A stretch of DNA of 64,000 bases from the NCBI GenBank assembly GCA_020851375.1, contig JADZCV010000045.1, positions 128,046 through 192,045 of the forward strand, in the 5' to 3' direction. Of this stretch, positions 2,126-54,887 are shown piece after piece. Under the pieces are notes generated by a model. It worked only from the letters and a program-made list of their open reading frames with translations. It was not told the origin of the DNA and did not search any database. This stretch comes from Nitrospirota bacterium (GTDB lineage: Bacteria; Nitrospirota; 9FT-COMBO-42-15; HDB-SIOI813). Positions within the stretch are counted from its first letter, which is position 1. Each line of letters begins with the position of its first letter. The position numbers and the translations under genes were made by a program.

Positions 2126-4253
2126 CGCTATACCTCACTATGCTTATGGGTTGCAGGCTCACAGAGGATGACAGTTCATTGGATGATAAAATTGTTATGT
2201 TGGGAATGAATCTTTCCAATAGTTTCCTCAATGGCAGCCGTATGGATGGAGATGTAAGGATAACCGGATAAATCCCCTTTTGGGCTGATGACTCTATAAG
2301 CCCCTTTAACTGATTGATAAATACCTGGGCCACTCTCGGTTCAAGAGATACCTGCATGCCCTGTGTCGTTTGCCTGACAGCAGAGTTTATCTTTTCTTCG
2401 AGTACAGGCTCAATGGTTATAACCGGAAGACTGTTGCCATTCTGATACTGCCGGGTAATAGTCCTCGACAGATTTGCCCTGACATATTCAGTCAGGGCAT
2501 CTGTGTCTTTAGTCACAACAGCATAATCAGCCAGCGTTTCAAGGATCGTCAAAAGGTCCCTCACAGGCACTCTCTCCTTAAGCAGATTCTGCAATACCTT
2601 TACAACGCCGCCAAGCGGAAGAAGGTTCGGAATCAGTTCCTCGACGACCCTTGGATATTTGCGGGCAAATCCATCCAGCAGAGCCTGGACTTCCTGCCTG
2701 CCTGTGATCTCATGGGAATGCATCTTTATGACTTCAGTAAGATGTGTAATTATAACAGTTGTGGGCTCCACGACTGTAAATCCGGTCATTTCAGCCTTAT
2801 CCTTATCCTGAGACGATATCCATAGGGCCGGTAGTCCGAAGGACGGCTCCCTCGCAGGAAGACCCTGTATACCCTTGTTTAAACCATCCGGATTTAAAGC
2901 AAGGAATCTGTCTATCATCAGCTCTCCCTCAGCCACCTCTGTACCTTTGATAAGGATCACATATTTGTTTGCACCAATATGCATACTATCCCTGATATGG
3001 ATAGGTGGTACGATTATTCCCATGTCTGAGGCAAACTGATGCCTTATGGATTTAATGCGGTCAACCAGCTCACCCTTTTGATGAGGGTCTACAAGCGGAA
3101 TCAGACTGTACCCTATGTGCAGTTCCATGACATCGAGCGGCACTACTCCGTCATGACCCTCTGTCTTCGTATCACTCTTCCCCTCCGATGCTGTCCTGCC
3201 TTTGGATATAGATGTGTTTATTTCCGGTTTTACCAGACCTGTGGCCTCACCAGCCGATTGTTTGATATTATATGCAACCCATGCCACTGCCCCTGTTAGG
3301 ATGGAAAAAGTTATAAAGGCAAAATGAGGAAGTCCTGGTATTAAACCAAATATAAATATTACTGCAGCGCTTATTGCAATGGCTTTGTGATGCGACAGAA
3401 GCTGCTTCGATACCTCTTCTCCGAGGTTTGACTCTGAAGCCGCCCTTGTCACTATCAAACCAGCTGATGTGGATATAATCAAAGCAGGGATCTGTGCCAC
3501 AAGACCGTCTCCTACAGTAAGCAGCGTATAATTCTGCGCAGCTGAGCCTATTGCCATTCCGTGCTGCAGTACTCCAATGACAAGACCTCCGATTATATTG
3601 ATGACCGTAATAATGATGCCTGCAATAGCGTCTCCGCGGACAAATTTACTCGCACCATCCATTGCCCCGTAAAACTCTGCCTCATGCGCAACCTGACCGC
3701 GCCTTCTCCTTGCCTCGGCTTCATCTATTGTCCCTGAATTAAGATCCGCATCTATACTCATCTGTTTCCCTGGCATGGCATCCAATGTAAATCTCGCCGC
3801 CACCTCAGCTATACGGCCGGCGCCCTTTGTAATGACTACAAAATTGATTATAACGAGGATTACAAATACGATAATACCCACGGCATAATTGCCGCCTACG
3901 ACGAAGTTGCCGAATGCCTTAATAACCTTGCCTGCTGCATCTGGGCCCTCATGCCCCTTGAGTAATATAAGCCTCGTAGAGGCGACATTCATAGATAACC
4001 TTGCAAGTGTCGTGATAAGGAGGACTGAAGGAAATACGGAAAATTCAAGCGGCTTGAGTATATACATGGATACAAGCATTATTACTATGGAGAAGGTAAT
4101 GCTGAAAGAAAGCAGTACATCCATTATAATTGCAGGCACCGGCAGTATCATTACAACAATAACGCCTACTGCCATTACAGCAAGCAGTGCATCGCTGTTT
4201 TTCGTCATTGACAGGAGAATTCTCCTGTTTGATTCTGTCATTGCGTACGCCAT
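2115..4253 (-). CDS. flhA: Flagellar export apparatus protein FlhA
   Basis: 712 aa with an N-terminal multi-TM region and a large cytoplasmic domain. Typical FlhA length and position after flhB. Confidence 0.95.
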   Translation of the reverse strand: MAYAMTESNRRILLSMTKNSDALLAVMAVGVIVVMILPVPAIIMDVLLSFSITFSIVIMLVSMYILKPLEFSVFPSVLLITTLARLSMNVASTRLILLKGHEGPDAAGKVIKAFGNFVVGGNYAVGIIVFVILVIINFVVITKGAGRIAEVAARFTLDAMPGKQMSIDADLNSGTIDEAEARRRRGQVAHEAEFYGAMDGASKFVRGDAIAGIIITVINIIGGLVIGVLQHGMAIGSAAQNYTLLTVGDGLVAQIPALIISTSAGLIVTRAASESNLGEEVSKQLLSHHKAIAISAAVIFIFGLIPGLPHFAFITFSILTGAVAWVAYNIKQSAGEATGLVKPEINTSISKGRTASEGKSDTKTEGHDGVVPLDVMELHIGYSLIPLVDPHQKGELVDRIKSIRHQFASDMGIIVPPIHIRDSMHIGANKYVILIKGTEVAEGELMIDRFLALNPDGLNKGIQGLPAREPSFGLPALWISSQDKDKAEMTGFTVVEPTTVIITHLTEVIKMHSHEITGRQEVQALLDGFARKYPRVVEELIPNLLPLGGVVKVLQNLLKERVPVRDLLTILETLADYAVVTKDTDALTEYVRANLSRTITRQYQNGNSLPVITIEPVLEEKINSAVRQTTQGMQVSLEPRVAQVFINQLKGLIESSAQKGIYPVILTSPSIRLPLRKLLERFIPNITILSSNELSSSVSLQPISIVRYSDAN

Positions 4254-4276: not shown

Positions 4277-5338
4277 CTATCCCTTCTTTTTCAACCTGTA
4301 GACATAAGCAAGGATCTCTGCAACCGCCTTGTAAAGATTCGCAGGTATCTCTTCACCTACTTTTACTATCTTGTATAATGTCCTCGCCAGCGGCTTATTC
4401 TCTATAACCGTTACACCGTTGCTTCGCGCGATCTCCCTGATCTTCTCAGCAATGAACCCTGCGCCTTTTGCGACAACTTTTGGTGCATTCATGCTGCCAT
4501 GTTTGTATGATAATGCAACTGCAAGATGCGTCGGGTTGGTTATGACCACATCAGCCTTTGGAACGTCTGCCATCATCCTTTTTCTCGCCGTTTCCCTCTG
4601 CATGCTCCTGATCCTTGACTTGACAAGCGGATCCCCTTCCTGCTGCTTATACTCTTCCTTGACCTCTTCACGCGTCATACGGAGATTTTTGGCATACTGC
4701 CACTTCTGAAACCCGAGATCAATCCCTGCGAGGATGCCTATAACTATACCAGTCCAGACAGCAAGTTTTAATGTCAGCTGCCCCATGTATGAGAATATGT
4801 AATGCACATCTCCGTCTATCAGCATCGGGAAATTGTGAAATTCACCTTTGATCAGAACATAGGACGTATATCCCACGATCGTTATCTTGATAATAGATTT
4901 AAACAGCTCCATTATTGAACGCAGGGACATGATCTTTTTAATCCCCTCGACAGGATTAATCCTGTCGAAGTTGACGTTGAGCGCCTTCGGACTGAAAACA
5001 AGACCAATCTGCAGCACATTTGAAATAACGCCCGCAATTGCCACCAGTGCAAGAAACGGGATCATTGTAATAAACACTTTTCTGAGCACCTCTGACCAGA
5101 ATGGATAAAAGTTGTCTGCAGAAAGCTCTATTGTGCCGCTCGCATTAAATATACCTGATGTCATGTCCATCAAATTGCTATATATTCCGGGGAGTAAATA
5201 ATACATTGCAATTGTCCCTGCCATTAATACTGCAAGAGAAGACACCTCCGGGCTTTTTGCAACCTGACCCTTTTCCCTCGTCTCCTGCAGGCGTTTGGGC
5301 GTAGCCTGTTCTGTCTTTTCCATATCATGATCAGCCAT
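4277..5338 (-). CDS. flhB: Flagellar export apparatus protein FlhB
   Basis: N-terminus EKTEQATPKRLQETREKGQV matches the FlhB start; 4 TM segments; the autocleavage-region sequence NPTHLAVAL is present. Confidence 0.9.
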   Translation of the reverse strand: MADHDMEKTEQATPKRLQETREKGQVAKSPEVSSLAVLMAGTIAMYYLLPGIYSNLMDMTSGIFNASGTIELSADNFYPFWSEVLRKVFITMIPFLALVAIAGVISNVLQIGLVFSPKALNVNFDRINPVEGIKKIMSLRSIMELFKSIIKITIVGYTSYVLIKGEFHNFPMLIDGDVHYIFSYMGQLTLKLAVWTGIVIGILAGIDLGFQKWQYAKNLRMTREEVKEEYKQQEGDPLVKSRIRSMQRETARKRMMADVPKADVVITNPTHLAVALSYKHGSMNAPKVVAKGAGFIAEKIREIARSNGVTVIENKPLARTLYKIVKVGEEIPANLYKAVAEILAYVYRLKKKG

Positions 5339-5339
5339 G

Positions 5340-6110
5340 TCACCTCACCATAACACTAAGAACATTAATGAAGTCATCCTTCATGCCTTCAAATGCCCGT
5401 TGAACCAGATTTGATAACAGGGGAATGGATAAAACCATGATCAGCAGCCCTCCGGCTATCGTAACAGGATAACCAACCATCATTACATTCATCTGAGGCA
5501 TCGTCTTTGAGATAATTGCCAGGGCTATGTTGGCAATAAACAGGGCAACTATAACAGGCGCACCTATCCGTACTGCAAGGACAAACATATCCCGCGACAG
5601 CGTTATAATACCGGACATCATCTGCTGTGATAAAGTAAATCGCATTGGTGATACTATCGCAAAACTCTCAGCCATCGCCGCTATAAAGAAATGATGTGCA
5701 TTAATAGATAGGAATATCAGGGTTACCAATATGGTCTGGAACTGACCGATTATCGGCACATGAGTACTCGTCTGGGGATCAATGACATTGACCATGGAAA
5801 ATCCTATCTGAAAACCTATAATCTCGCCGGCCATATCCACTGCACTGAATATCAGCCTTGCTATCAGGCCTATTGTAAAACCTATTATCACCTCAGCCCC
5901 CATTGCAGCAGCAAGTGTCAGAAGATCGGCAGAAAAAACCGAAGCGTCAATTTTTACAATGCTTATCAAAATAAGCGATGTAAACAGCGCAAGCCCTATT
6001 TTGAAACCCCTGGGGACATTGCGTGCACCCAGAATCGGTAGAAAATAGATCATTGACGCCGTCCGTACAAATATCAGGATAAAGGAATTTAGTTGTAATA
6101 AGACATCCAT
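5340..6110 (-). CDS. fliR: Flagellar export apparatus protein FliR
   Basis: 256-aa polytopic membrane protein between fliQ and flhB. Confidence 0.85.
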   Translation of the reverse strand: MDVLLQLNSFILIFVRTASMIYFLPILGARNVPRGFKIGLALFTSLILISIVKIDASVFSADLLTLAAAMGAEVIIGFTIGLIARLIFSAVDMAGEIIGFQIGFSMVNVIDPQTSTHVPIIGQFQTILVTLIFLSINAHHFFIAAMAESFAIVSPMRFTLSQQMMSGIITLSRDMFVLAVRIGAPVIVALFIANIALAIISKTMPQMNVMMVGYPVTIAGGLLIMVLSIPLLSNLVQRAFEGMKDDFINVLSVMVR

Positions 6111-27090: not shown

Positions 27091-27363
27091 ATGACAAAAG
27101 CAGAACTGACAGACAAGATAGCAATTTCAGCAGGTATCAGCAGGACAGCAGCATCAAACGCGCTGAACTCCATGCTTGAAAATATAACCAGGGCATTGCA
27201 GAAGGGACAAAAGGTAACTCTGCTCGGGTTCGGAACATTCTCAGTACAGCACAGGAAGGCCCGCTCCGGCAGGAATCCAAAGACTGGTGAAGAGATAAAG
27301 ATACCGGCAGGTAAATTGCCTAAGTTTACAGCCGGGACAGCCCTCAAGAATTCCCTCAAATAG
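27091..27363 (+). CDS. hup: Nucleoid protein HU/IHF family
   Basis: 90 aa with the classic HU signature GFGTF...RNPKTGEEIKIPA. Confidence 0.9.
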   Translation: MTKAELTDKIAISAGISRTAASNALNSMLENITRALQKGQKVTLLGFGTFSVQHRKARSGRNPKTGEEIKIPAGKLPKFTAGTALKNSLK

Positions 27364-27366
27364 AGA

Positions 27367-27525
27367 ACGCTGAAAAGCACCCCACTGCGGCGTCAGGAAA
27401 AAAGATTTGAACTTCAACGTACAACACAGTACGCCTCAGCTCAAATCTTATTTCCTTCCTTGCATTTGAGTACTTTTGAGCGTTCTCCCGTTGTGACGCT
27501 GAAAAGCACCCAACTGCGGCGCCGG
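27367..27525. repeat. Repeat family 1, full copy (27367-27483) plus a partial copy (27495-27525)
   Basis: ACGCTGAAAAG...CTTTTGAGCGT terminal inverted repeat, the invariant core CTTCAACGTACAACACAGTACGCCTCAG, and a copy-specific complementary inner stem. Confidence 0.6.
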
Positions 27526-27526
27526 T

Positions 27527-27715
27527 TCATGGTTCCAGGTCTAAGACAGTGTTGCAATTCATGCAGAGATATCCCTCTCCTTCAACCATACGGCATGTCT
27601 CTGAGATATACCTGATCTCATATACCATCCCGCATTTACCGCAGGTAATCTGATGCTTTAAATTAGAACCAGGGTTTCCTGTTTCCGTACCCCCTGTTTT
27701 ATCATTATCTGACAC
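27527..27715 (-). CDS. Small zinc-ribbon protein (CxxC...CxxC), GTG start
   Basis: SD GGAGG lies 5 nt before the GTG; two Cys pairs (CGKCG...CMNCN). Uncertain, because it sits between two repeat blocks. Confidence 0.4.
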   Translation of the reverse strand: MSDNDKTGGTETGNPGSNLKHQITCGKCGMVYEIRYISETCRMVEGEGYLCMNCNTVLDLEP

Positions 27716-27740
27716 GTCAACCTCCGTTTCATCTGAAATT

Positions 27741-27965
27741 CCCCGTTATTTACCACAAAGACACAAAGGACACAAAGAATTATATTTCAGATACATCATC
27801 CCAAAATGCTCCTATGTACCTGTCATTCCCACGGAACCTGTCCCCGCATGATTTAAGCGGGGAGTGGGAATCCAGAATCAAGCACTAGTTCTGGATTCCC
27901 GCTTGCGCGGGAATGACATTTTCATCGACCCTTGTGAGCCCAGGCTCATGACGGTTCACTCGATA
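27741..27965. repeat. Repeat family 2, composite hairpin array (modules D-A-B-C)
   Basis: Module D is the CACAAAG-rich segment. Module A is ATTCCCAC...GTGGGAAT with a nested TCCCCGC/GCGGGGA stem. Module B is ATTCCCGCTTGCGCGGGAAT. Module C is TGAGCCC...GGGCTCA. The array recurs at 32837-33297 and 43305-43503. Confidence 0.6.
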
Positions 27966-27986
27966 ACTCACCAGCATCCGGGCTTG

Positions 27987-30698: not shown

Positions 30699-31998
30699 CA
30701 TTCAACAGAGGTACCCCTATCTTTTGCCTCTTGTTTTCCCCTTTAAACAATTCCCCCTTTCTTGCAGGCACGTCCCCACGCTCCCCCTCATGTTGTGCAT
30801 GAATCTTTACCGGCAGGCTTGAGGCATGCTGAACCGTATGCTTGCCAAACCGTTGTGAGAGCTCATCAACAGCGCTGTATATCCTGCCCATCTTCTCTAT
30901 TCCAGGCACATCATCAAACAGGGAGTACTGGACACTGCTGACAGGGACAAGACCGGCCAGGATAACGCCTGTTGACCTGTACTGGGTACCGCTCCTGTAT
31001 ATCTCCCTGAAGCCATTCCTGAGTATGCCTGTAAGCTCTGCCGGGAATGAAGTAGGGCGGCTTAGTTTCAGATCAACCCCATTGTCCCTGAAGTCCTGCA
31101 TCCTCAGAAACAGGATTAACCCCGAAGCTGCAAGTTTATGGCGCCTTGCCTTGATGCAGGCATTCTCAAGGTTTTTAGACAACTGGGCAAATATAAAGGT
31201 CTCATCCATTGACGAAGGGGTAAAGGTCTTTGTCTTGCTGATTGATTTATAACTGCTCTTTGACTCCCGTACTACAGGATAAACGCTCCTGCCATTTAAC
31301 TCATGCCATATCTCCTGATAGGGTTTGGAGAGGTATGCCTTTATAAACTCCTCTTTGCTGCGTGCAAATTCAAGGGCCGTTACTATATTAAACTTTCCAA
31401 GAAATGCAGAGGTGTTCGGACCTATGCCCCACAGCTTTCCAACAGGCAGATCTGAAAGGTATCTGTGTATGTCACCCCCGGGAATTATTGTGATCCCGCA
31501 TGGTTTTTTATACTTTGAGGCGACCTTGGCAAGCACCTTGGTAAGGCTTACACCGATAGAGACACTTATCCCCAGCTCCTTTGCTATCGCCTCCTGCACC
31601 CGCCCTGCAATATCTGAATATGGACCGTGAAAAGTCCTCCTGAGGCCGGTAAGATCCACAAATGCCTCATCAATCGAATACTCCTCCACATCAGGTGAGA
31701 AACGCCTGAGTATCTCAAACATCCTTATGGAAAAGAGGCTGTAGGTCTCATAATCAGATGGAAGGAGTACAACATCAGGGCAGGCCTTCTTAGCCTCAAA
31801 CAGCCTCATCCCGCGTTCTATACCCCTTGCCTTTGCCTCATAGCTTGCCGCAGCAACTATACCCCGCTCCTTTCCTGTTATGACAGGCCTCCCCTGAAGC
31901 TCGGGATGTATCGCCTGCTCGCATGATGCAAAAAACGCATCCGCATCCATGTGCATTATGGCCCTCGGCCATGAGTGGATTGTAATAGGCTTATCCAT
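30688..31998 (-). CDS. dinB: Y-family DNA polymerase (DinB/Pol IV-like)
   Basis: MHMDADAFFASCE catalytic N-terminus and a little-finger domain. It is the gene after lexA. The true start may be the internal M14-M17. Confidence 0.85.
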   Translation of the reverse strand: MDKPITIHSWPRAIMHMDADAFFASCEQAIHPELQGRPVITGKERGIVAAASYEAKARGIERGMRLFEAKKACPDVVLLPSDYETYSLFSIRMFEILRRFSPDVEEYSIDEAFVDLTGLRRTFHGPYSDIAGRVQEAIAKELGISVSIGVSLTKVLAKVASKYKKPCGITIIPGGDIHRYLSDLPVGKLWGIGPNTSAFLGKFNIVTALEFARSKEEFIKAYLSKPYQEIWHELNGRSVYPVVRESKSSYKSISKTKTFTPSSMDETFIFAQLSKNLENACIKARRHKLAASGLILFLRMQDFRDNGVDLKLSRPTSFPAELTGILRNGFREIYRSGTQYRSTGVILAGLVPVSSVQYSLFDDVPGIEKMGRIYSAVDELSQRFGKHTVQHASSLPVKIHAQHEGERGDVPARKGELFKGENKRQKIGVPLLNVKV

Positions 31999-32215
31999 GC
32001 TTTGTCATTCCTGCGAAAGCAGGAATCCAGATATTGTTACTCACAAATACTTTTATACAAGTCATTCCATTGTGGGCTCTCTTTTTCAATTAATTTTAGT
32101 TTCCATATTCTTTTCCATTTCTTTATTTGTTTGCTACAAAGAATATAAACATAATAATTCTTCATTCCTTACCTCTGGATTCCCGCTTACGCGGGAATGA
32201 CAAATAATAATTCCA
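31995..32215. repeat. Two family-2 type-B hairpins in the lexA-dinB spacer (ATTCCTGCGAAAGCAGGAAT at 32010-32029; ATTCCCGCTTACGCGGGAAT at 32178-32197) flanking AT-rich DNA
   Basis: ATTCCC-N8-GGGAAT architecture. The first copy carries a compensatory C-to-T / G-to-A pair that preserves the stem. Confidence 0.5.
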
Positions 32216-32236
32216 TACAACTACACATATTATCAA

Positions 32237-32836
32237 TTATATATACTTCCTCACGACTGCCGTTACCACACCGGCAATCTTCAACTCACTCTTGGGTCTT
32301 ATAGCTTTATACTTCGGATTTGCAGGCAACAGAGAAACCGCATCCCCGCGCTTTCTCAGATACTTCATGGTCCACTCCCCGTCTACCTCAGCAATCACAA
32401 TATCACCGCTCTTTGGGGTCTGAGACCTGTCTACTATAACCATGTCACCAGGGAGTATGCCGGCCTCAACCATGGAATCACCGGACACCTTTAGCAAAAA
32501 TGTAGCCTCCCTGTTCTCTACAAGCAGGTCATCAAAAGAGAGCGTATCCGCCAGCTCTTCCTCGGCAGCGCTCGGAAAGCCGGCCTCTACAGTGCCAAGG
32601 ACCCTCGTGCCTGATACCAATGACCTCGGTATAAGCCTCCCTGTATGGTCCCTCTCTACCACCCCCATCTCTTCAAGCCTGTTTACAAACTTGAACACGG
32701 CATTCTTCGACCTCATACCGAGCATTTTCCCTATCTCAGAAAAACTCGGCATACGCCCCCGCTGCTTATAAAACCGGGCTATGGCATGAAACCGCGATTT
32801 TAATTTAGCCTCTCTGCTATGTTCCAGCTTCTTCAC
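32237..32836 (-). CDS. lexA: SOS repressor LexA (GTG start)
   Basis: N-terminal winged HTH; C-terminal S24 peptidase with the catalytic Ser (GDSM) and Lys (KYL). SD AGGAG 9 nt before the GTG. Confidence 0.85.
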   Translation of the reverse strand: MKKLEHSREAKLKSRFHAIARFYKQRGRMPSFSEIGKMLGMRSKNAVFKFVNRLEEMGVVERDHTGRLIPRSLVSGTRVLGTVEAGFPSAAEEELADTLSFDDLLVENREATFLLKVSGDSMVEAGILPGDMVIVDRSQTPKSGDIVIAEVDGEWTMKYLRKRGDAVSLLPANPKYKAIRPKSELKIAGVVTAVVRKYI

Positions 32837-33297
32837 TCGAAAATACTCCTAAGTACCCGTCATTCCCACGTAACCTGTCCCCGCAGGATTTAAGCACCCG
32901 TCATTCCCACGGAAGTGGGAATCCAGAATCAGGCCCACGGTCTGGATTCCCGCTTACGCGGGAATGACGTTTTCATGAACCCTGGTGAGCCCTGAGCTGT
33001 GAGCTTGTCGAACAGTCGAAGGGCTCATGACAGTTCACCTTAAAATCCCAGTTATTTACCACAAAGACACAAAGGACACAAAGAATTATATTCCAGATAC
33101 ATCATCCAAAAATGCTCCTATTCACCCGTCATTCCCACGTAACCTGTCCCCGCAGGATTTAAGCGGGGAGTGGGAATCCAGTATCAGGCCCACGGTCTGG
33201 ATTCCCGCTTACGCGGGAATGACGTTTTCATGAACCCTGGTGAGCCCTGAGCTGTGAGCTTGTCGAACAGTCGAAGGGCTCATGACGGTTCACCTAA
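32837..33297. repeat. Repeat family 2, tandem composite array (A-A-B-C-D-A-B-C)
   Basis: About 460 bp of nested hairpins. The sequence is near-identical to the copies at 27741-27965 and 43305-43503, including the CACAAAGACACAAAGGACACAAAGAA module. Confidence 0.65.
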
Positions 33298-33418
33298 AAA
33301 TACCACCCTCACCCGTACCCTCTCCCTGCCATCTTTATAATAGGTGAACATTCGTTTACTGTCAAGGAGAAAACTTCATTTATTGCAATAACCCGCTTTA
33401 TTAAAGTAATATGTCATC

Positions 33419-38910: not shown

Positions 38911-40440
38911 TTGAATAAGTGGCTTATAGCATTGACAGTCATGCTTCCCACACTGATCGAGATAATAGATACCTCGGTCGTGAATGTATCGCTCGAACAC
39001 ATACGCGGCAGTCTTTCAGCCGGCGTTGATGAATCCACCTGGACAATAACCTCATACCTCGTTTCTAACGCAATCATAATACCACTTACAGGGTGGCTCA
39101 GCAGGAGATTCGGCAGAAAGAGATATCTGCTCTTTTCAATAGGGCTCTTCACTGCCAGCTCATTCATGTGCGGGGCAGCGTGGAACCTCCAGAGCCTGGT
39201 ATTCTTCAGGATACTCCAGGGTATCGGCGGCGGGGCAATGCAGCCAATCTCACAATCAATCCTGCTCGAGTCGTTTCCGCCCCGTCAGCACGGCATCGCG
39301 ATGGCCGTATTCGGTGTGGGTATCATGTTCGGACCGATTGTAGGACCGCTTATGGGCGGCTGGCTCACTGACAACTGGTCATGGCACTGGATATTCTTCA
39401 TCAATGTGCCGATCGGCATAATTTCAATGTTCATGGTCCTGTTCTTTATCTCTGATCCTCCATATCTAAAGGGGAAGGGGCTAAAGGTTGATTACGCTGG
39501 CCTTGGCCTGCTCGCCATCTCGCTTGGCTGCCTTCAGGTGGTGCTTGACAAAGGACAGCAGGAAGACTGGTTTGCTTCACAGTTCATAGTAGCACTAACA
39601 TTCATCTCTGTTGTTTCTCTGATTTCCTTCATAATTAATGAGCTCCGCGTTGAAAATCCAATTGTTAACCTCAGACTATTCAGACAGGCAACATTCAGCG
39701 CAGGCAATATTGTGATGTTCTGCGCATTTTTCAATCTTTTTGGCAGCATAGTGCTTCTGCCGATATACCTTCAAACTCTTATGGGATATACTTCAACCCT
39801 GTCAGGTCTTGTGCTCGGCCCCGGAGGCATTGCCACGCTCATAGTCATGCCAATAGCAGGGCTGCTTGTAACCAGGGTGAATCCAAAAACACTGCTCGCT
39901 TTTGGTATCATCGTATGTTCGTATTCAACATATGTGATGTCCCAGTTCAACCTGTATGCAGACTTTACAACTATACTCTGGCCCAGGATTCTCCTTGGAA
40001 TTGGGATGGGGTCTCTCTTCATACCGCTCACAACCATGACAATGTCCGGTATAAGAAAAGAAGATATGGGAGATGCCACATCATTCTATAATCTGCTGCG
40101 GAATCTTGGAGGCAGCTTTGGGGTGGCATTTGTTGCCACGACACTTGCAAGGAGGTCCCAGTTTCACCAGGGCAGGCTGTCAGAGGGGTTTACTCAGTTT
40201 GACCCGGCGTTTCAGCAGGCAGTTTCAACAATTGAAAGTACCCTGCGAGGGGCAGGGGCTGATCCGGCAACCTCGTCATACGGCAGTCTCGATATTCTAT
40301 ACAAAGAACTTATACGTCAGGCAGCAATGCTCTCCTTTAACGATGCCTTTTACATTGTGAGCATATTGATGCTGCTTACACTTCCGCTGATTTTTCTGAT
40401 GCGCAGGACAAAGTCGGCCGAATTACCGCCGATGCATTAA
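38911..40440 (+). CDS. emrB: MFS DHA2-family efflux pump (EmrB/QacA-like, 14 TM), TTG start
   Basis: 509 aa with 14 predicted TM segments and the conserved motif GRKRYLLFSIGLF. GGGGA lies 8 nt before the TTG. Confidence 0.9.
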   Translation: MNKWLIALTVMLPTLIEIIDTSVVNVSLEHIRGSLSAGVDESTWTITSYLVSNAIIIPLTGWLSRRFGRKRYLLFSIGLFTASSFMCGAAWNLQSLVFFRILQGIGGGAMQPISQSILLESFPPRQHGIAMAVFGVGIMFGPIVGPLMGGWLTDNWSWHWIFFINVPIGIISMFMVLFFISDPPYLKGKGLKVDYAGLGLLAISLGCLQVVLDKGQQEDWFASQFIVALTFISVVSLISFIINELRVENPIVNLRLFRQATFSAGNIVMFCAFFNLFGSIVLLPIYLQTLMGYTSTLSGLVLGPGGIATLIVMPIAGLLVTRVNPKTLLAFGIIVCSYSTYVMSQFNLYADFTTILWPRILLGIGMGSLFIPLTTMTMSGIRKEDMGDATSFYNLLRNLGGSFGVAFVATTLARRSQFHQGRLSEGFTQFDPAFQQAVSTIESTLRGAGADPATSSYGSLDILYKELIRQAAMLSFNDAFYIVSILMLLTLPLIFLMRRTKSAELPPMH

Positions 40441-40516
40441 ATGATACCCAAAGAGATCAGACAAACGAACTTCGGGTGCTCCCGAAAGAGTAAACCAGGA
40501 CGCTGCTGCACACCTG

Positions 40517-41158
40517 TTGGAACATCCCGGAACACCAAAGGATGCACCAAAGGCTTTTCTCGAGCAAATAGAACAGGTGATCCGGCTTATCCGCTCGAAG
40601 GGAATCGGCGTCTTCTTCTGCACGCAGTCACCAACGGATATTCCACAGACTGTGCTGGCACAGTTAGGCAACCGTGTGCAGCACGCGCTGCGGGCATTCA
40701 CGCCAAACGATGCGGAGAACCTGCGCAAGACCGTAAAGACCTATCCACGCTCCGATTTTTATGAGATTGACAGGGCGCTCACGTCAATGGGGATCGGGCA
40801 GGCGCTGATTACGGTGTTGAATGAGAAGGGAATTCCCACGGAGGTTGCCGTTACGCATCTGGTTCCGCCCCGCTCCGTGATGGGTCCGCTGCCGGAGAAT
40901 GAATATCGTAATCTGTTTCTCTCTTCAGAATTCTATCGTAAATACGAAAAGACGATTGACCCCGTGAGCGCTCAGGATATCCTTTCAAGCCGGATGGCGC
41001 AGCAGCAGACACCGGCCGGAGCTCCAGTTTACAAATCCTCTCAAAGGAAAGCAGAAAAAGGAATGGTGGAGCAGGTGCTCTCCAGTTCTGTCGGGCGGCA
41101 GATTGGAAGAGAGCTTGTGCGCGGTGTGTTCGGGATGTTGTTTGGCAAAAGACGATAA
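40517..41158 (+). pseudogene. C-terminal fragment of a YjgR/DUF853 (HerA-like) ATPase, high GC
   Basis: Matches only the C-terminal half of the about 500-aa family (GIGVFFCTQSPTDIP). It has no N-terminal Walker A and starts right after the emrB stop, in DNA of visibly higher GC. Confidence 0.4.
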
Positions 41159-43304: not shown

Positions 43305-43503
43305 ACCTGTTCACTCGAAAATACTCCTGAGTACCCGTCATTCCCACGGAACCTGTCCCCGCAGGATTTAAGCGGGGAGTGGGAATCCAGAACCAAGCTA
43401 CTGGTCTGGCTTCCGGCTTACGCGGGAATGACATTTTTCATGCCCCTGTGAGCCCCGAACTTTCAGCGTGCCGGACACCCGAAGGACTCATGACGGTTCA
43501 TCC
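43305..43503. repeat. Repeat family 2 copy (modules A-B-C)
   Basis: It begins with the same TTCACTCGAAAATACTCCTGAGTACCCGTCATTCCCACGG sequence that forms the lexA translation-initiation region. Confidence 0.6.
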
Positions 43504-43613
43504 GACAATGTCTGTTAATTATGCTGCCAGGATCATCTGCAAACAGCCCCTTTGTTCTGTCTGTCACAGCTCAGGGAGTATTTAGCGAATCAAGCCGGCT
43601 GCACAGGCCGTCG

Positions 43614-54348: not shown

Positions 54349-54353
54349 GCGGG

Positions 54354-54478
54354 TTGACGCTGAAAAGTGCCCATCTGCGGCGTCAGGGCATGGGAATTGA
54401 GCTTCAACGTACAACACAGTACGCCTCAGCTCAATTCCCATGCCCTTCCTTGCACCTGGACACTTTTGAGCGTCAACC
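54354..54478. repeat. Repeat family 1, full copy, ending 5 nt before the tRNA-Asp 5' end
   Basis: GTTGACGCTGAAAAG...CTTTTGAGCGTCAAC ends, the invariant core, and inner stem GGGCATGGGAATTGAG/CTCAATTCCCATGCCC. Confidence 0.6.
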
Positions 54479-54597
54479 TTGTTGTTTATGCTGAATTCTG
54501 CAAAATTACTTTATACGGCGTTGGACTCCTCAGGAAATCCTCAACGTACTATTTAGTACGCCTCCGGTTTCCTTGTCATCCACTCCTCTATAAGCAA

Positions 54598-54673: not shown

Positions 54674-54677
54674 ACAG

Positions 54678-54797
54678 TTTACGCTGAAAAATGTCCATTT
54701 GTGGCGTCAGGAAGTATCAATTGAGCTTCAACGTACAACACAGTACGCCTCAGCTCAATTGATACTTCCTTCCTTGCAACTGGACATTTTTGAGCGT
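54678..54797. repeat. Repeat family 1, full copy, starting 4 nt before the tRNA-Val 5' end
   Basis: Same ends and core as the other copies; inner stem GGAAGTATCAATTGAG/CTCAATTGATACTTCC. Confidence 0.6.
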
Positions 54798-54887
54798 AGA
54801 CTGAGTTACTTTTGCTACATTGGGTTACATCCTAACAACTTTAAAAAATATTGTCAATACGGAGTGTTCGGCTTATAATATTCCAAT

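Follow-up and report, generated by a model that had tools for sequence, protein, structure and literature searches.

We analysed a stretch of 64,000 nucleotides (nt) from a Nitrospirota bacterium (assembly GCA_020851375.1, contig JADZCV010000045.1, positions 128,046 to 192,045; G+C ~46%), hereafter the window, in which short palindromic repeats lie beside ilvD, between lexA and dinB, upstream of lexA, and between a rodZ-like gene and a gene of the PNP family. An earlier note, made from the bare sequence, had placed four modules (A to D) at four loci (27741-27965, 31995-32215, 32837-33297 and 43305-43503), and all of the loci and modules are present there or within a few bases. It had also assigned the repeats to most large intergenic gaps, which was an overstatement: of the ~11 gaps of at least 200 nt the family occupies 4, and it fills the two largest of all. 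The core of the family is a 28-nt hairpin, GTCATTCCCRC-N4-GYGGGAATCCAGA, found in seven copies with three mismatches or fewer where none is expected. The palindrome ATTCCC-N8-GGGAAT occurs in five exact copies against 0.02 expected (six when a compensated CCTGC variant is counted), and GTCATTCCC occurs ten times against 0.8 expected, always at the four loci.

Modules A and B, described earlier as separate, are the same unit in inverted orientation. The short form of A (GTCATTCCCACGGAAGTGGGAATCCAGA, 32900-32927, plus strand) and the four copies of B (minus strand) are single 28-nt units set 13 nt apart in opposite orientations, with their tags facing outward and their CCAGA tails inward, and the long form of A is the 28-nt unit with a second hairpin, TCCCCGC-N9-GCGGGGA, in its loop. 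Every 28-nt unit opens with GTC(A/G)T preceded by C or T. Folded as DNA or as RNA, A and B together give a single long hairpin that bears the nested hairpin as a branch, while module C folds separately, and the folds of the repeat units reach z-scores of -6.6 to -7.5. Across 17 distinct 28-mers (window plus related loci), stem cells are paired in 97% of cases and four of the eight stem pairs have changed on both sides (CCCGC/GCGGG, CCTGC/GCAGG, CCCAC/GTGGG, CCCGT/ACGGG and CCCAT/ATGGG), with a covariation score as high in 0 of 500 shuffles; G1, T2, C3 and C24 are invariant. These figures bear out the compensatory stem changes proposed earlier, including the compensated stem of one variant hairpin, which lies at 32007-32026 and not, as had been given, at 32010-32029.

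Relation to NTS, dRS3 and CGTC-1 repeats

The Neisseria Transformation Sequence (NTS), CGTCATTCCCGCGMAVGCGGGAATCYRG, contains the dRS3 repeat and is the target of SsnA, a small GIY-YIG protein that binds the NTS hairpin only as single-stranded DNA (ssDNA) and cuts the tagged strand alone, a few nucleotides away from the hairpin on its 5' side (Chenal et al. 2025, PMC11893778). As a result, DNA that carries an NTS transforms less efficiently. NTS-like motifs lie on either side of ssnA homologues in many bacteria, and binding and cutting of one strand, as ssDNA only, was shown for the four Ssn enzymes tested (PMC11893778). By the search criterion of that study (CGTCATTCCCGCGMAVGCGGGAATCYRG with at most one mismatch), three window copies are NTSs against none expected, and its degenerate SRM pattern matches five B units against 0.22 per shuffle. 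The flanks that define an NTS, an oriented 5' CGTC tag and a conserved C after the palindrome, are also present. So is the association NTS-ssnA-NTS, as a relic in the window, intact in an orthologous contig (L130), and also in L122-L131 and in Neisseria gonorrhoeae. The likeness to neisserial dRS3 that had been noted earlier is correct and closer than was supposed, with three copies that qualify as NTSs and a gonococcal unit that flanks the ssnA homologue there. Probably, then, the repeats are palindromic, CGTC-tagged units of the NTS/dRS3 type in a family of the Nitrospirota, and so of the kind that SsnA targets as ssDNA.

The 28-nt unit has the anatomy of the CGTC-1 family of repetitive extragenic palindromic (REP) sequences as well: a CGTC or TGTC tag, an 8-bp stem starting with AT, a 4-nt loop, a CCA tail and a predominance of inverted dimers (Di Nocera et al. 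2013, PMC3733652). That survey equated CGTC-1 with dRS3, described the family without a dedicated enzyme and found that CGTC repeats do not flank transposase genes (PMC3733652). It differs from the present case in that Nitrospirae is not among the five phyla it lists, and the link to ssnA came later. CGTC-1 dimers of H. neapolitanus sit in a longer palindrome, GAAAaACC...GGTaTTTC, and the flanks here are GAAAAT...ACCC and GTTTTC.

Alongside these likenesses, the window departs from the NTS/SsnA system in several ways. The host belongs to the Nitrospirota and not to Neisseria or the Alphaproteobacteria, the local ssnA is a 42-codon relic, its cassette lies inside a lexA-dinB operon, and the units are part of a larger composite that adds boundary motifs, a hairpin nested in the loop and another type of hairpin. 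The organism, moreover, has no known context of competence or transformation. The Nitrospirota host, the lexA-dinB position, the half-deleted cassette, the nesting of hairpins in loops and a bounded composite with a start-codon junction are not covered in PMC11893778 and PMC3733652.

The exact 28-nt pattern is also found in 106 viral or prophage-like IMG/VR contigs (L004-L109), many of them from isolate genomes and some with 4-6 copies, and one of these (L034) encodes an Ssn homologue beside the repeat. A scan of viral contigs with the module A pattern gave no match, and blastn of the repeat array against plasmids returned one irrelevant match only.

The ssnA cassette between lexA and dinB

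The locus at 31995-32215, previously taken for a composite unit, consists of two inverted hairpins around a gene relic and is an NTS-ssnA-NTS cassette between lexA and dinB. Its upstream flank is an NTS unit at 32174-32201 (minus strand) and its downstream, inverted flank is the unit with the CCTGC/GCAGG stem at 32004-32031 (plus strand), 6 nt from the dinB start. Between them, at 32037-32165 (minus strand), lies an in-frame ORF of 42 codons, MKNYYVYILCSK joined to QIKKWKRIWKLKLIEKESPQWNDLYKSICE and a stop codon, which lacks codons ~13-66 of ssnA. The earlier note missed this relic, along with the inverted A-B doublet and the unit ends at start codons.

The orthologous locus of a related organism, on a 588-bp ENA contig (L130), contains the lexA 3' end, an NTS, an intact ssnA for a protein of 101 amino acids (aa; P0068), a second NTS and the dinB 5' end. 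Relative to it, 177 nt are missing from the window between GCAAA repeats, and the comparison indicates that the window's ssnA was cut down to a relic by in-frame deletion between these short repeats. In tblastn of P0068 against the window, the relic was matched at E=2.5e-13. A separate weak tblastn match at 55.5 kb falls within another gene and was set aside.

As a query, the 42-aa relic had no match in Pfam, NCBIfam, PDB or plasmids (tblastn), and homologous-protein searches with the relic, and likewise with the phantom ORF at 33027-33230, gave no candidates. The Ssn family was retrieved with an artificial query, made of the two relic ends and a consensus middle, and the relic was then judged against the real returned proteins only. 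This query yielded at least 8,000 candidates, and 120 of 120 among the matches listed were ~96 aa long and annotated with PF01541. Relic residues 1-12 are 100% identical to the N-termini of real PF01541 proteins of 96-101 aa, and its last 30 residues are 83-90% identical to the C-termini of such proteins, including a shared ending.

The layout of the cassette recurs in intact relatives. Metagenomic homologues (L122-L126, L129 and L131) have one NTS that ends a few bases short of the ATG and another, inverted, directly after the stop codon. The single N. gonorrhoeae homologue, with 57-60% identity to P0068 over 93-98% of the length, is likewise flanked by NTS units (CGTCATTCCCGC...GCGGGAATC); the gonococcal locus was read from PLSDB entries NZ_CP119140.1 and NZ_CP119142.1, which are 2.17-Mb N. 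gonorrhoeae chromosomes filed there as plasmids. The Nitrospirota and neisserial systems share both the layout and a family of ~96-aa, single-domain GIY-YIG proteins.

Hairpins inside NTS loops vary between otherwise equivalent copies. The upstream NTS of the ssnA cassette is plain in the window and has a 23-nt hairpin in its loop in the orthologous contig, the same contrast exists between L123 and L124, and the long form of module A is a further case; NTS loops thus gain or lose other hairpins repeatedly. The nested hairpin of module A (CCTGTCCCCGCATGATTTAAGCGGGGAA) also occurs alone, with 28 nt identical, in a Latescibacterota metagenome-assembled genome (MAG) contig (JAJEAX010000017.1; L001, 3685-3712), the sole match in a genome-contig scan with the nested-hairpin pattern. 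This copy could represent an independent mobile hairpin, horizontal transfer or mis-binning.

Further observations were made on Ssn relatives. An identical Ssn-family protein (P0044) is encoded in three gene neighbourhoods (L123, L124 and L125; ~4750-5450 in each), two of them in one assembly, and each time inside a larger unit bounded by the inverted repeats GGTTCATCTCCCAATTAGTTG and CAACTAATTGGGAGATGAACC, whose termini begin GGTTCAYC, like the X motif described below. This cassette looks mobile, since the same protein recurs in three neighbourhoods within a unit bounded by inverted repeats. Directly upstream of an ssnA cassette in L126, ATATAATATAAGAAAC units are repeated in tandem (1-160). 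In an annotated NCBI protein of 158 aa (P0019), an Ssn homologue, translated repeat (VIPAEAGIQ, FPRRRES) forms a spurious extension of the N-terminus, which illustrates how these hairpins contaminate gene calls.

Composite units and their ends

At the other three loci the A-B doublet is part of a composite unit with the order X, Shine-Dalgarno (SD)-like stretch, A, B, C, X. Composite units are 90-97% identical to one another in a repeat search of the window, and the tandem duplicate reported earlier at 32837-33297 is real, with a period of 255 nt. Homology between copies starts at the 13-nt X (TTCAYCYRAAAAT) and stops at a second, direct copy of X, and the outer stem of C consists of a partial, inverted copy of X. 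The minus-strand reading of module C is CGTCA-TGAGCCCT...AGGGCTCA-CCAG, with the tag and tail of the 28-nt unit and a different stem. The long-loop and short-loop forms of C distinguished earlier both exist, the long form in two exact copies, which is also the number of exact copies of module D in the window.

The first locus opens with X (TTCATCTGAAATT, 27728-27740, plus strand), followed by module D as a 17-codon mini-ORF with its own AGGAG (MMYLKYNSLCPLCLCGK and a stop codon, 27746-27799, minus strand) and by a long module A, an NTS-type hairpin with a CAC/GTG stem and TCCCCGC-N9-GCGGGGA nested in the loop (27822-27876, plus strand). Module B is a 28-nt NTS unit (GTCATTCCCGCGCAAGCGGGAATCCAGA, 27890-27917, minus strand), and a short-loop C with a degenerate right X (27918-27967, minus strand) ends 20 nt from the ilvD stop codon.

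In the tandem array, the left X of unit 1 (32832-32849, minus strand) reads GGAGTATTTTCGA-GTG on the minus strand, which is the SD sequence and start codon of lexA (GTG at 32836). Next to it come a truncated module A consisting of the left arm and half of the nested hairpin (32859-32895, plus strand), the short A, a module B with one mismatch to the published NTS pattern (32941-32968, minus strand) and a long-loop C (32969-33046, minus strand) that includes the right X at 33034-33046. Unit 2 has the second copy of D (mini-ORF MMYLEYNSLCPLCLCGK and a stop codon, 33052-33105, minus strand), a long A (33128-33182, plus strand), a B that again has one mismatch to the published pattern (33196-33223, minus strand) and a C (33224-33301, minus strand) with the right X at 33289-33301. 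The unit at the fourth locus is more diverged: its left X (GGAGTATTTTCGAGTGA, 43310-43327, minus strand) lies 19 nt before the ATG of the PNP-family gene, its A is of the long form (43337-43391, plus strand), its B is a degenerate copy with two stem-breaking mismatches (43405-43432, minus strand), and its C (76%; 43433-43509, minus strand), with the right X at 43497-43509, lies ~100 nt from the stop codon of the rodZ-like gene.

Three copies of the module D ORF (27746-27799 and 33052-33105 on the minus strand, and L115) give the 17-codon consensus M(M/V)(Y/N)L(K/E)YNSLCPLCLCGK and a stop codon, each with its own AGGAG; their two synonymous and three non-synonymous differences are too few for judging coding. 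Another common hairpin or repeat type (CCCTCTCCC...GGGAGAGGG, GGGTGAGGG) occurs beside units in the window (33300-33330) and in the flanks of L111 and L121.

Read on the opposite strand, the A-side end of the unit is GGGAATGAC-GGGTATAT-AGGAG-CATTTTCAG-RTG-A, or AGGAG-N9-RTG. Within the window, the motif (GGAGYATTTTYRRRTGA) occurs only at repeat ends, apart from one chance-level match. A real gene starts with this RTG at 8 of the 15 independent ends, against a background RTG rate of 15.9% in these sequences (binomial P ~9e-4). These genes are lexA and genes in L112, L113, L114, L117, L118, L119 and L120, and they encode IspD, MurJ, an Oxidored_q6 hydrogenase subunit, an amidohydrolase, LexA, a U32 peptidase, a helix-turn-helix (HTH) protein and a protein with DUF2156/LPG_synthase_C domains. 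Where the start of the Pfam profile was reached (IspD, hydrogenase subunit, amidohydrolase, HTH protein and LexA), the match begins at ORF residues 3-16, and the NCBI LexA record is likewise 199 aa, which gives the same GTG start.

An empty counterpart is available from a related species (L137, a 49-kb Logan contig), in which the unit is replaced by 116 nt of unrelated spacer. The ATG is the exact point from which the sequence is again homologous to the filled loci, and the gene has ~85% nucleotide identity by eye. The repeat type CCCTCTCCC...GGGAGAGGG/GGGTGAGGG also occurs within this 'empty' spacer (3958-3982), as do AGCAATGAG tandem repeats. At lexA, a near-consensus sigma-70-type promoter, TTGACA-17-TATTAT (11/12; 33337-33365, minus strand), lies upstream of both units and is directed at the gene, so that the predicted leader comprises ~495 nt of repeat. 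Its spacer holds AAACGAATGTTC, one mismatch from GAAC-N4-GTTC when read directly, which we tentatively regard as a LexA box.

A scan with the long-module-A pattern recovered 12 metagenome stretches in two assemblies (WBZO01 and JAANMX01), representing 11 independent loci with the same composite unit and flanks unrelated to each other. Because the flanking proteins are at least 90% identical to proteins of the window's MAG, on three of its contigs, these loci are assigned to a sister strain. Ten proteins of the window are themselves exact matches to NCBI proteins of that MAG, in the range MCC7202978-MCC7203041. The combination of truncated and short A in unit 1 of the window is repeated in L117, module D is present in L115, and module C is absent from four loci and otherwise varies in loop length by small tandem duplications. 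In the window's own strain there are two further copies, beside ispD and beside a gene like that of a hydrogenase small subunit (L132 and L135), one of them 46 genes before the window and the other on another contig. The total is at least 15 loci, and the modules are thus not confined to the four loci of the window; such confinement is what, according to the earlier note, would have pointed to local duplication. Short-read (Logan) contigs of the window's strain end at or within the repeats. In practice, the repeats break short-read assemblies of the lineage and yield spurious ORFs; the five ORFs across the arrays that had been called phantoms do exist as ORFs, and that reading of them is right.

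Origin and spread of the units

The autonomous form of the family would be the cassette NTS(+)-ssnA-NTS(-), which in this lineage lies between lexA and dinB, and the A-B doublets would be its gene-less, non-autonomous derivatives. Each doublet is embedded in a larger X-bounded unit that is dispersed through the genome, with C as a second CGTC-tagged hairpin. Derivation from ssnA cassettes is, in our analysis, the most likely origin of the doublets, because their polarity is that of the NTSs flanking the cassette and because the relic shows that deletion of the gene happens. They would be the counterparts of miniature inverted-repeat transposable elements (MITEs), derived from insertion sequence (IS) elements, and of REPINs, derived from RAYT cassettes. 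The IS-like look of NTS-ssnA-NTS was already remarked by the authors of PMC11893778. An Ssn enzyme may still act on these copies, the repeats may be mobile, and ssnA would be under SOS control.

Several points weigh against this picture. No intact ssnA was found in the 64 kb of the window by tblastn, and the window copies may be orphan relics on which no enzyme acts. The intact relatives of 96-101 aa match the Pfam domain PF01541 (GIY-YIG) only and are unmatched in NCBIfam and PDB, which bears on membership in cd10448. SsnA is known only to cut, with no known joining activity, and so would not by itself account for the multiplication of the repeats. The Ssn model also predicts neither the X motif nor the start-codon junctions.

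A more specific version would treat X-A-B-C-X as a self-contained cassette with site-specific placement at translation starts, where it replaces the native spacer as far as the start codon and supplies its own SD sequence. An SOS-inducible Ssn nuclease, the product of the gene between lexA and dinB, would cleave ssDNA, and both the spread and the loop nesting would depend on this. We consider this version doubtful. For the start-codon boundary itself we considered recombination guided by microhomology or by core sites at SD/ATG regions, selection for insertions that carry their own SD, and integration of a circular form at X. If the placement reading is true, the Ssn/NTS system gains both a propagation mechanism and a link to the DNA-damage response; the position of ssnA inside the lexA-dinB operon suggests a link to the SOS response that can be tested. 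On the multiplication of dRS3/NTS and of CGTC-tagged repeats more widely, the 2013 survey had no dedicated enzyme to offer, and the nuclease of the 2025 work cuts but is not known to join. The present data give three handles on this question: a cassette half-way to a gene-less doublet with an intact orthologue for comparison, a filled and empty pair with the unit boundary exactly on a start codon, and an indel polymorphism of a second hairpin inside an NTS loop.

The composite could instead be kept mainly for a role in RNA, as a portable structured leader or intercistronic element that brings its own SD to start codons and stabilizes or tunes mRNA like the REP/BIME elements of E. coli. Such a role does not conflict with an Ssn-related origin and, although unlikely, is the most probable of the alternatives. 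In its favour are the AGGAG-RTG motif at repeat ends and its coincidence with gene starts, the GTG used in the NCBI LexA record and a predicted lexA promoter beyond both units. In the RNA fold, moreover, the SD stretch is unpaired and directly 3' of the large hairpin, and units also lie between co-directional genes (ilvD and its downstream neighbour, rodZ and the PNP-family gene) and inside a hydrogenase operon. However, no gene is joined to 7 of the 15 ends, the flanking genes have no common functional theme, and the high identity of the copies favours spread over an ancient regulon. The Rfam search, at gathering and E-value thresholds, left the repeats unmatched (tRNAs and one sub-threshold RsmY match were the only matches). 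A scan for intrinsic terminators gave no support for a terminator role of the repeats.

It is improbable that the hairpins are attachment sites of a site-specific recombinase and the direct X repeats its recombination cores, by analogy with dRS3 and the Piv/IS110-type recombinase of neisserial filamentous prophages. Every unit does have X in direct orientation at either end, the arrangement that a circle integrated at a core site would leave, the tandem units have one X in common, the empty site has a clean boundary at the ATG, and dRS3 is cited as a phage recombinase target in PMC11893778. Yet the neighbourhoods of the loci contain neither recombinase nor prophage genes, and the flanking genes are housekeeping genes; the X copies within one locus are not identical; and the whole 116-nt spacer differs at the empty site, so the event was not a simple insertion.

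Mobilization of the doublets as REPINs by a RAYT (IS200/IS605-type tyrosine transposase) encoded elsewhere, with the ssnA association incidental, is less probable still. The resemblance is one of outline: a single-copy nuclease gene between inverted hairpins, gene-less inverted doublets scattered between genes, mosaic combinations with other motifs as in BIMEs, and a doublet that folds into one long hairpin, as REPINs do. The tag, however, is CGTC/TGTC and not GTAG, and the gene flanked by the units, here and in other organisms, is of the GIY-YIG type, for which only cutting is known, in contrast to the HUH tyrosine transposase, which cuts and joins. Among 20 window ORFs scanned, no Y1 transposase or RAYT was found, and the absence of transposase genes beside CGTC repeats in the 2013 survey (PMC3733652) points the same way. 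Membership in the REPIN-RAYT system was rejected on the tag and on the flanked gene, which is not a RAYT. Local duplication within a 16-kb stretch, suggested by the position of all window copies between 27.7 and 43.5 kb, is refuted by the 11 independent loci with unrelated flanks in the sister strain, the two more loci in the window's own strain and the short-read contigs that end at or inside repeats.

Other element classes were tried and rejected. A Correia-type MITE, with terminal inverted repeats and a target-site duplication, does not fit ends that are direct copies of X, and X itself is not a target-site duplication, being alike between loci and not identical within one locus. CRISPR and integron attC arrays were rejected because regular spacing is lacking and the neighbours are housekeeping genes. 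Closer in form are the neisserial NIMEs, in which ATTCCC-N8-GGGAAT hairpins are likewise interleaved with other repeat modules as mosaic intergenic arrays; the architecture of intergenic modules separated by dRS3-type inverted repeats is seen here too, the neisserial RS units being compared by architecture only. As differences, the interleaved modules (X, C, D and the nested hairpin) are lineage-specific, the arrays are short, with one or two units, and unit ends fall on start codons, which NIMEs are not known to do.

Two features of the window are separate from the family. A largely palindromic repeat of ~110 nt (ACGCTCAAAAGTG...GAGCTGAGGCGTACTGTGTTGTACGTTGAAGCTC...CACTTTTCAGCGT), unrelated in sequence to the NTS family, occurs at 27363-27532, 54353-54497 and 54677-54821, directly upstream of tRNA-Asp and tRNA-Val (minus strand) and once beside the first locus. 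At 38911-41158 (plus strand), the C-terminal domain of a HerA-like helicase (profile positions 271-437 of 502) is encoded in a 213-aa ORF directly after a 509-aa ORF, and the two ORFs may be a split or frameshifted gene.

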